NCBI GenBank assembly: GCA_041658585.1
Contig: JBAZZX010000011.1
Location: 5,483-69,482 of the forward strand
Length of the DNA: 64,000 nt
Reading direction: 5' to 3'
Source of the DNA: Thermodesulfovibrionales bacterium
GTDB taxonomy: Bacteria > Nitrospirota > Thermodesulfovibrionia > Thermodesulfovibrionales > SM23-35
The position numbers are program-made. Shown piece by piece: positions 39,001 through 42,000 of this stretch (positions within the stretch are counted from its first letter, which is position 1; each line of letters opens with the position of its first letter).

Positions 39001-42000
39001 GGGTAGCCTGAAAAAACTGGACGACTTCGCGGGCATCTCCGTAAATTGACCGGTGCGCCTCATCGTTAATCACAAGATCAAAGTAAAATGGGGTAAATTC
39101 CTGCCGGTATCGGCGATCAGTCATGAGCGACTGGATCGTGGCCACAACAACAGAAGAACCCAACAATTCACCGGTCCGGCGAGCTGTCTTGTAGATGACC
39201 GGCTTATACTCGCCGAGGACGATATTGAAATCCTCCATCGTCTGCTTTGCCAGTTCAATGCGGTCAACGATGAACAGCACACGCTCGGCGTTGCGGGTTG
39301 CCAGAAATCTCCGGATCAGTGCAGCGCAGAGCAAAGTCTTGCCAGTTCCGGTAGCCATTTCGAGGAGAAATTTGCGCCGTCCCTCTTTATCAAAGAGGTC
39401 TGCGATAGCCTCCATAGCGTTAATTTGATAACCGCGCAGCTTCAAAGCAGGTTTCAGACGGTAGAGGTAGTCAGGGGTTATGACCTCGGACCTGAGTTCG
39501 CGAGGCGGCTGAAGATTCTTGAGACGTACCCGCTCCAGATCCTTCTGAGAAGGCAGACGCTCGATGCGGTATGCATCCTGCTGGGCAGCGCGTTGGAGAT
39601 TCCAGAACCAATGTTCACGGCCATTGGAAAGGATAACAAACGGCGCGTTGCGGTTCTCAGCATAGCCGCGTGCCTGCTCTTTCGCATCATAGGGGTCTAA
39701 GTCCTCGCGTTTTGCTTCAAGGACGCACAAAACACGGCCCATGCTATCTTTCAGAAGGTAATCAGCTCTGCCAGTAGGCGTATGATGTTCGAACTGGACT
39801 TGCTGTGAATTGAGCAAATCCCAGTCGCTATCTATCAGAGCCATGTCGATCAGGACTCTTGAAAAGGCTTCTGGATGATGGATGCCATTTTTATTTTTCA
39901 TGCTGCTATATTTGTACCAGTAATCGTCAATAATTTCAATATATTTGTGGTATTGGTTAGCAGGTGTTAGAAACGCTTTTATCCTTTTGTAGAAGCAAAA
40001 TAATTTCTATCAACTTCTTCAACGCTTGGACGCTGATTGCTCTCAGCGCTTTTTCCTTAGGCCCATAATATCGGTCACTTTCCATAACCTCTCACTATCC
40101 TCGCCCTATCCTCACTCGCCTTATCTCCTTTATAATAAATCTCAATGAACTCTATCCTGTCCTCTTCTTCGTGATAGGCATAGATGATCCTTATCCCCGA
40201 CTGCACGCCTTTCCCTTTCAGCGCCTTGCAAGCGAACTTTTTGGCCTTATATATTTTCGGTGAACGGATGCCGATTTCGGATATATGAAGGACCGCCCCG
40301 CTATCGATGTTCTGTTTGTGAAATGCGTTCATCGCGACCTTAATGAAAATGTGCAAATCCTCTTCAAGTGAGGCGAACCGTCTGAGGAGTTTCTTGAGGT
40401 CCTTCTCGAATTCCGGGGCATGGGTAATCTGCTTGAATAGTTTCCCGACGAATTCGCTGTAGAATTTCTTCTCCATCAACTCTCTTCCGCATATGCCCTC
40501 ACGGAATAGGGCGGAGTGCGGTAAAAGACCGCTTCATACTCGATGACCTCGCCGTCGCTCGTCGTAAGCCAAGGCACGTCGCTGTGAGAATAGGCGCTGA
40601 TCTGGCTTGCGTTCATTTCGGAAAGCCTGTTCAGGACATCGTCGATCACCTCGATTTCGTTTGCCTTGAACTTCGTAAGGTCCGGCCTGTTTCGTGGCAG
40701 GTATTTCGTCCGGGGGTAGCTGAAATAATCGCTCTTTACCTTTTCTATTTCACCCTTCTTGATCATCCGCTCAACAATCTTTGCAAATTCGACCGGCGTA
40801 GGGCCATACTGATTTTTCATGTACGATGCCCCGATTAATTGGTCCTCATATTTTTCATAGAAATCAAAATCAATAAAATAGAGCAGCTTGTAGATGACCG
40901 TCTCGCCGATGTTCGGCTTCGATCCGACTTTGTTCAGGATGTACAATAGCACTTCCTTGAACTTCTGAAGGTTTTTTTGCGGCACGCTGATACGCATCTG
41001 TGGCTTACGTTCATTTTCTTCCTTACCTTCGTGAAGGCATACTTCCGGCTCTTTCCCGGGATCAATAAGATCAGCCACAGGCACATGGAATATCTGCGAG
41101 AACTTGAGAAGCTCGTCGGTAGCAATTTTCCGCGCGCCGCTCTCGACTTGTGAGATGGCAGGACGGGGTAGTTTCATTTTCCTCGCCAGCGCATCCTGGC
41201 TCATTCCGGTCTTTTCCCTCAACTCCTTGATCCGGCGCCCTATTTTCTCATAAATGTTCATTGGCTCCCTCCCTTGATGATACTATCCTATCATATGTAT
41301 GCTAATCTGTCAAGATGTTGTTAGATATTATTACAATAGTAAAGCTCCTATAAGATTCAACCGCAATGGATAAAACTGACGTCGGCACGTTGGTTCTCAA
41401 GAGGTGTAGTAATGTTTCATGGGGATTCTGAAGAAGACTTAAAAGGGTAAGTTGCGTGGGTAATTACGCCATCACCTTTGCACGCTCAGCAAGAAAAGAG
41501 CTTGAGAACAAAATCTTAGGACACACCGATATAAGAACCTCACAACGCTATGCAAAGTCCTATGGGAAAAGCCGATTAAATAAAGATTTTTCAGTCGAAC
41601 AATTAAGACGCACTTAATCAAGTGGCTATCCCGTTAGATGTCAGGGATAAACTCTCAGGCCAAGGGTTTTGAAGTCCAGGTCAAACGAAAAACATGGGAT
41701 ATTATCGAGCACATGAGTTATTACAACAAAAGAAACAGCATCACAAAAGGATATCTTCTTGTCTCTGGAGAGTTTCTTGAGAACATCTTCAGCAGTCTCA
41801 GGCGAAGTCTTCAGGGATTTTATAATCCCCGGCAGCCGATCCTGGCAATTTTTTCTGTTTATATATCCGAAGATATATTTCAAGAGGTTTCAGCACTATC
41901 TTACCTTCTCACAGTTATGTGCAGCTCCACATAACTGTGAGAAAGAGAAATATTTCTGGAACCGCAGAAAATCCCTATTACTTACAAGTACTGCAGCTTG

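Follow-up and report, generated by a model that had tools for sequence, protein, structure and literature searches.

We consider it likely that the 289-nt segment at positions 41626-41914 of a 64,000-nt stretch of contig JBAZZX010000011.1 (hereafter the window), from a Thermodesulfovibrionales bacterium (assembly GCA_041658585.1), is the non-functional remnant of a resident vapBC toxin–antitoxin locus lying beside a strain-variable defence island, and that the intact vapBC pair found in that island is a separately evolved allele. The remnant (relic) belongs to the allele that we term A and the intact pair to the allele that we term B. The relic consists of three pieces of a vapBC module, brought together by two internal deletions that left neither a working toxin nor a working antitoxin.

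The relic region (41500-42050) was compared with the whole window by BLASTN, and a repeat finder was run independently. BLASTN returned three same-strand, collinear matches of the relic to the vapBC locus at 32.4-33.4 kb; the pieces are listed with the other features in Table 1. The vapC piece aligns with 32441-32608 over 168 nt at 92.3% identity, with 13 mismatches and no gaps (E 7e-67), the vapB piece aligns with 33057-33102 over 46 nt at 93.5% identity, with three mismatches (E 3e-14), and the upstream piece aligns with 33268-33353 at 82.6% identity, with one gap (E 4e-19). The repeat finder recovered the same pieces as its families D1-D4, with a direct-repeat spacing of 9185 nt, and neither method found a further copy of the relic or of vapBC in the window. 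An earlier, sequence-only reading had described the segment as a collage of the vapBC locus, a decayed copy reduced by two internal deletions. Both programs bear this out: the piece boundaries that it proposed agree with those computed by BLASTN to within 1-2 nt, the deletions amount to 448 nt and 165 nt, and its figure of about a dozen mismatches in 170 nt corresponds to the mismatch count given above for the vapC piece. The left ends of the relic and of the intact module both start at CTATCC. On the right, weak similarity between the two modules runs ~40 nt further, through a hairpin, to ~41955 in the relic and ~33395 in the intact copy.

Both junctions of the relic show the pattern of a microhomology-associated deletion, in which a short identity present at both parental breakpoints is kept once in the product. 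Deletion 1 corresponds to 32609-33056 of the intact copy; it joins vapC codon 90 to vapB codon 29 and takes out VapC residues 1-89, D11 and E52 included, together with VapB residues 30-90. Deletion 2 corresponds to 33103-33267 and takes out vapB codons 1-14 with the ATG, the Shine-Dalgarno sequence, the operator-like palindrome and the promoter-like site. Its junction lies in GCAGCCG, the 7-nt overlap that had been read from the sequence by eye, and a microhomology of this length has a chance probability of ~5e-4 by our rough estimate. The same reading had proposed a 2-3-nt overlap at the first junction, and here the outcome depends on the parental reference. If the neighbouring intact copy is taken as that reference, the overlap is 1 nt. 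However, a metagenomic contig, L007 (Ga0315281_10580297), keeps the relic's own allele beyond junction 1 (...CTTCAGCAGATGTTCTCA), and the A-type parental sequence that it provides, CTTCAGCAGATG, gives a 3-nt CAG microhomology. The chance of a microhomology of at least 3 nt is ~0.05, and junction 1 by itself is non-significant. Judging from the junctions, the deletions could have arisen by replication slippage or by microhomology-mediated end joining.

The relic retains 15 VapB codons and 50 VapC codons and is without the remaining 75 codons of vapB. Deletion 1 took away the N-terminal, catalytic two-thirds of the toxin along with the C-terminal two-thirds of the antitoxin, the part of VapB antitoxins to which toxin binding is ascribed. 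On the toxin side, the chimera aligns to VapC residues 90-139 only and does not contain a complete PIN catalytic site. For the intact VapC, by comparison, an alignment with 14 full-length relatives shows D11 and E52 to be conserved and D107, D127 and D129 to be invariant. Toxin and antitoxin were thus disabled in one step by deletion 1.

Evidence from other assemblies places the relic in a wider population. The window is part of JGI contig Ga0265296_1000402, and its layout occurs on at least four contigs from JGI, ENA and NCBI, including a 98-kb ENA contig and an NCBI metagenome-assembled genome (MAG); a second layout, that of the sister strain L003 (GCA_964532535.1), occurs on three. Because the window-type layout recurs in contigs from the assemblies of all three sources, the arrangement is not an assembly artefact. 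L003 is 99.2% identical to the window over 11.3 kb, and both L003 and contig L004 carry the relic with the same two junctions, in L003 next to the transaldolase gene. L003 parts from the window at 41575/41576, beyond which an intact DUF6933 gene and a gene for 277 aa take the place of the window's island. The shared junctions and differing neighbours in L003 indicate that both deletions predate the split between the two strains and that the flanking cargo is strain-variable.

A metagenome scan with one 26-mer common to both vapBC copies returned two contigs, L007 and L008. L007 carries the relic's allele at 95-97% identity, and its vapC runs three codons past junction 1 (...RTSAEDV...) before it is fused, in inverted orientation, to the start of an ABC-F gene (window 63898). 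The L007 relic also carries a TAA nonsense codon. These features indicate that there was formerly a longer A-type vapC and that it was truncated independently in L007. Positions 1-889 of L007 correspond to window 63277-63902 plus 41576-41795, with the vapC relic joined ~35 nt upstream of the ABC-F start, a layout that implies either that ~22 kb were inverted, with one of the breaks inside vapC, or that the module also occupies a second site. L008 carries an allele of the intact type (95% identical) beside a full DUF6933 gene, with the same CTATC junction as in the window's left copy.

An open frame of 80 codons runs over both junctions of the relic (Table 1), and the frame and the two peptides quoted for it in the sequence-only reading proved exact. 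Its TTG start is merely the mechanical choice of an ORF (open reading frame) lister. Expression of the frame as protein is very unlikely, because it lacks a Met and is not preceded by a Shine-Dalgarno sequence, a search of 41300-42300 for promoter-like sites gave none, and the native start codon, ribosome-binding site and promoter all fall within the stretch lost with deletion 2. The chance that a frame survives across junction 1 is about one in three, and we read its preservation as accidental. Public gene calls place ORFs on the opposite strand over the relic, and the chimeric frame is predicted by no gene caller. The calls over 41638-41934, an opposite-strand ORF of 98 aa, are spurious, and the annotation should be that of a vapBC pseudogene.

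The frame could in principle encode a functional small protein, expressed by read-through from the upstream operon, in which the C-terminal third of VapC forms inactive heterodimers with VapC or binds VapB and so modulates the intact VapBC. In L003 and L004, as in the window, the frame runs open across both junctions, and its VapC part is still a good fit to the family consensus. However, the expression signals are missing as described, and a strong hairpin with a perfect 16-bp stem separates the frame from the Zn-ribbon and transaldolase genes upstream. Moreover, no purifying selection is seen among the relic copies: the window and L003 relics differ by two nonsynonymous and no synonymous coding changes, and L007 has its nonsense codon and another truncation point, all small numbers. 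Together with the absence of the frame from all gene calls, these observations make a functional chimera hardly credible, and we continue to treat the segment as a remnant.

The relationship between the two copies was assessed from an alignment of the 168-nt block, with L009 as the nearest species-level relative. The sequences fall into two groups. Group A comprises the window relic, L003 and L007, which are 96-98% identical to one another, and group B comprises the window's intact copy and L008, which are 95% identical. The two groups are ~92% identical to each other, and both are 88-90% identical to L009. Between the window copies, the vapC part shows six nonsynonymous and five synonymous differences and the vapB part none and three, respectively. 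When pooled, these give six nonsynonymous differences over 147 sites and eight synonymous ones over 48, so that nonsynonymous relative to synonymous divergence (dN/dS) is ~0.2 (Fisher p 0.007). When the changes were polarized by eye against L009, similar numbers fell on each branch. This ratio and the even distribution of changes suggest that most of the divergence between A and B arose under purifying selection on both alleles, before decay set in. The word paralogue, which had been applied to the relic, is therefore probably wrong: the copies are alleles that diverged by 8%, mostly under purifying selection, and each is found alone in other metagenome contigs. The same selection signature, the separate occurrence of the alleles and the layout of L003 make it more likely that the relic is the older resident copy and that the intact B copy arrived with the island rather than by local duplication.

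The history that best accounts for these data would begin with an original module beside the Zn-ribbon and transaldolase genes, made up of the hairpin, a spacer upstream, promoter, operator, vapB and vapC. One internal deletion at CAG and another at GCAGCCG would have shrunk the A module to its present 289 nt before the window strain and its sister separated. The B allele would have come to lie 9.2 kb away with the island, most likely through horizontal exchange or recombination at the hot spot. The relic would have no function of its own, and its sole plausible effect would be to offer the 3′ end of the intact vapC a poor partner for homologous recombination.

Alternatively, the segment running from the hairpin through vapBC could have been duplicated in this genome, with cargo inserted between the copies and one copy then decaying. 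The two copies have the same orientation and the same left end, and, beyond this, the upstream piece at 33268-33353 and the hairpin are common to both window copies and missing from the vapBC loci of other genomes. However, the 8% divergence and the low dN/dS point to long functional evolution of both copies, which is hard to square with a redundant, decaying duplicate. In addition, A and B occur separately in other metagenomes (L007 and L003 versus L008), and the sister strain has the relic without the window's cargo beside it. We therefore regard duplication in situ as unlikely and favour a resident A copy joined by an incoming B allele. Besides the shared upstream piece and hairpin, several other observations weigh against this preferred history. 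None of the databases searched contained an intact A-type vapBC at the transaldolase position, so we can only infer the ancestral state. No exact A-type VapC occurs among the closest homologues inspected (P0002-P0013 and P0015 of 1186); the closest intact VapC proteins inspected differ from the relic at 4 of the 50 C-terminal residues, and the neighbours of their genes (YgjP/Slp genes, a Cmr operon) are unrelated to the window locus. The substitution counts are small, with 14 coding differences in total, searches with the ORF at 41456-41617 confirmed no recombinase near the island, and the relic may be transcribed by read-through from the transaldolase/Zn-ribbon operon.

The relic and the intact copy form a direct repeat, and it had been proposed that recombination between them could delete the 9.2 kb in between. 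This is possible in principle, the longest identical run within the 168 nt being 41 nt (32511-32551). For RecA-dependent recombination, 41 nt is close to the shortest length that works efficiently, and a divergence of 8% strongly reduces the rate. The product itself was not seen: the metagenome scan with the shared 26-mer returned no contig carrying the deletion, and neither L007 nor L008 is recombinant. L004 and L006, both Logan contigs, terminate within the repeat, at or just beside the 41-nt run, as happens in de Bruijn assembly, and are uninformative on the deletion. Besides the intact vapBC and a type I restriction-modification system, the 9.2 kb contains two more toxin–antitoxin-like pairs; as loss of this stretch removes an intact toxin–antitoxin pair and the restriction-modification system, it should be counter-selected. 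A more elaborate possibility, which we rate as very improbable, is that the repeats act as a recombinase-independent switch for excision or loss of the 9.2-kb cassette, with a RecA crossover in the 41-nt core and VapBC killing the cells that lose the circle, or with a read-through chimera dampening VapBC addiction. If so, a circle with the intact vapBC, the remaining toxin–antitoxin pairs and the type I restriction-modification system would occasionally be released, and only a hybrid relic would stay in the chromosome.

The repeats were also considered as attL and attR of a site-specific element that targets the 3′ end of vapC, with the ORF at 41456-41617 as the remnant of its integrase. Direct repeats do flank a 9.2-kb accessory block, and the hairpin, with 14-bp perfect arms within its 16-bp stem and a 6-nt spacer, resembles a recombinase core site in its geometry. 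The peptide LGHTDIRTSQRYAK (41519-41563) resembles, by eye, a C-terminal motif of tyrosine recombinases; it was dropped as evidence after four negative searches, the 53-codon ORF (+ strand) having no match in Pfam (E up to 10), NCBIfam, PDB sequences or a collection of 5.8 billion proteins. The point at which L003 and the window diverge falls inside this ORF. Against an integrative element stand not only these searches but also the repeats themselves, which are 92% identical over 168 nt without a distinct exact core, and the homology that resumes in vapB and its upstream region after the internal deletions, which duplication of an att site does not predict. Furthermore, the supposed element contains the complete gene and leaves the truncated one outside, and the sister strain shows sequence replacement and no clean empty site. 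With neither an adjacent recombinase nor an exact core and fitting target gene, this reading was rejected, and we give it next to no weight.

The intact pair itself has the features of a VapBC system, namely a PIN domain with its acidic residues and a small, co-oriented antitoxin gene upstream that overlaps the toxin gene. Its VapC has 1186 homologues at E below 1e-20, several of which are called VapC-family toxin or PIN by NCBI, and an identical protein is listed from a Thermodesulfovibrionales MAG. VapB adjoins VapC at 29 of 31 related loci; it matches Phd/YefM weakly (E 0.014; 15.5 bits against a cut-off of 29.8) and has no match in NCBIfam. The operator-like palindrome is followed by a GAGGGG Shine-Dalgarno sequence and then the ATG. 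Elsewhere, vapBC cassettes have sharp boundaries that correspond to window 32448-33184 (737 nt) and lie in unrelated contexts (L043 7119-7855; L009-L019), and the window shares no synteny outside the cassette with 31 species-representative vapBC loci, matches to other loci being confined to 32450-33184. Given the same sharp boundaries in unrelated contexts, the cassette appears to move as a discrete unit among Nitrospirota. One of these cassettes directly adjoins a type III-B (Cmr) CRISPR operon.

From the left, the interval reads tRNA-Ala, DUF2284, the DUF6933 3′ fragment, vapBC, a DUF2283/DUF4258 pair and a PDC-S32-like gene, followed by hsdS, hsdM, hsdR, the gene for a 134-aa protein with its HTH-Panacea partner, a 364-nt spacer, the relic, the hairpin, Zn-ribbon and transaldolase. 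Within the cargo, the 274-aa protein matches the PADLOC candidate PDC-S32, and hsdS, hsdM and hsdR make up the type I restriction-modification system. The HTH-Panacea antitoxin is SocA-like; its 134-aa partner has no family match and is a candidate novel toxin. We interpret the interval from DUF2284 to transaldolase as a hot spot for defence genes that varies between strains of this Thermodesulfovibrionales population and at which cargo is exchanged. The DUF6933 fragment sits between the region upstream of DUF2284 and the stop codon of vapC; it shares 97.8% identity with the 3′ end of the gene that is intact in L003, and L008 also matches it. As L003 has the same two CTATC sites ~170 nt apart, the join between DUF6933 and vapC may be a third microhomology deletion.

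On the right, the shared module ends with the hairpin, which lies downstream of the Zn-ribbon and transaldolase genes. Folded as DNA, it has an energy of -19.2 kcal/mol (z -4.7), and no T-run follows it. Homology between the modules fades inside the hairpin, which has a degenerate counterpart at ~33340-33395, and no further copies of the palindrome were found in the window. Possible roles are that of a terminator or insulator separating vapBC from the upstream operon and that of a recombination site. An Rfam search for known RNAs in and near the relic and the hairpin returned tRNA-Ala only. This tRNA-Ala(CGC) gene (31475-31550, + strand) lies 150 nt left of a low-GC stretch at 31-34 kb (38-40% GC), and two Logan contigs break within it. 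The gene might be an integration site, or the actual left boundary of the variable region might lie here; paralogous tRNA sequence would account for the breaks equally well. Further to the left, an ORF at 13823-22480 (+ strand) encodes 2885 aa with GH94, glycoamylase and cyclic-glucan-synthase-like domains according to public calls. Its GC content is 56-61%, compared with ~47% elsewhere in the window, which suggests that the ORF is of foreign origin or strongly biased in composition.

Table 1. Features of the window that bear on the vapBC relic, in order of position
Feature	Position	Strand	Remarks
DUF6933 gene 3′ end (last 90 nt), pseudogene fragment	32359-32450	+	convergent with vapC; joined to vapC flank at CTATC
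vapC, B type, intact; PIN-domain toxin, 139 aa	32456-32875	-	Pfam PIN, 29.6 bits (cut-off 23.6)
vapB antitoxin gene, intact	32872-33144	-	stop overlaps vapC start by 4 nt
Promoter-like site of intact vapBC, GTGACA-17-TACAAT	33177-33205	-	followed by operator-like palindrome TGTAC-N5-GTACA
Upstream piece of intact copy common to relic	33268-33353		absent from vapBC cassettes of other genomes
Cargo between repeats	33464-41261	-	DUF2283/DUF4258 pair; 274-aa protein; hsdS, hsdM, hsdR; 134-aa protein and HTH-Panacea antitoxin
Spacer between island cargo and vapBC relic	41262-41625		non-coding or relic; contains 53-codon ORF 41456-41617 (+)
vapC 3′ third, A type, relic	41626-41793	-	15 nt of 3′ flank, stop and last 50 codons (AEDVLKK...GLRVYP, stop)
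Open 80-codon frame over both junctions	41641-41883	-	TTG 'start'; read as pseudogene frame
vapB codons 15-29, relic (RLPGIIKSLKTSPET)	41793-41838	-	in-frame join to vapC piece at CAG
Upstream non-coding stretch, relic	41832-41914		intact-copy equivalent lies 125-210 nt upstream of vapB
Hairpin, perfect 16-bp stem, 6-nt loop	41906-41941		inside 48-nt imperfect inverted arms 41877-41972

Compared with type II VapBC systems, the intact copy is typical in its PIN acidic residues, its 4-nt vapB/vapC overlap and its promoter, which overlaps the operator-like palindrome. The relic goes back to an allele of this cassette that is 92% identical, but differs in that two catalytic residues, 75 VapB codons and all expression signals are gone, so that no working pair is left. 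The interval resembles known defence islands and hot spots in holding a type I restriction-modification system, a PDC-S32-like protein and three toxin–antitoxin-like pairs, and in content that differs between 99%-identical strains. Toxin–antitoxin systems stabilize genomic islands in other bacteria, as HipAB does in Shewanella CGI48 (PMC8978831) and SgiAT in SGI1 (PMC5006074). By analogy, the intact vapBC, which lies in the interval that a crossover between the repeats would delete, could oppose such a loss; unlike at those islands, no integrase, att sites or excision product came to light at the window island.

The closest parallel for the relic is the erosion of chromosomal toxin–antitoxin loci by truncation and deletion, which is frequent in high-turnover spots, for example in Photorhabdus, and leaves DNA remnants; both toxin and antitoxin are affected in about half of the eroded copies (PMC13617665). 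Decay of ccdO157 in E. coli is another case (Mine et al. 2009, as cited in PMC13617665). Like such loci, the relic lost both functions, here through a single 448-nt deletion that left no free toxin. It differs in coming from uncultured Thermodesulfovibrionales, in keeping a frame across the junction and in having an intact, diverged allele nearby. Preservation of the frame is the relic's only unusual trait, and in other respects this is ordinary toxin–antitoxin erosion, of small relevance beyond annotation. Within that scope, the relic is a clean example of 'safe' toxin–antitoxin loss that fits current models of erosion.

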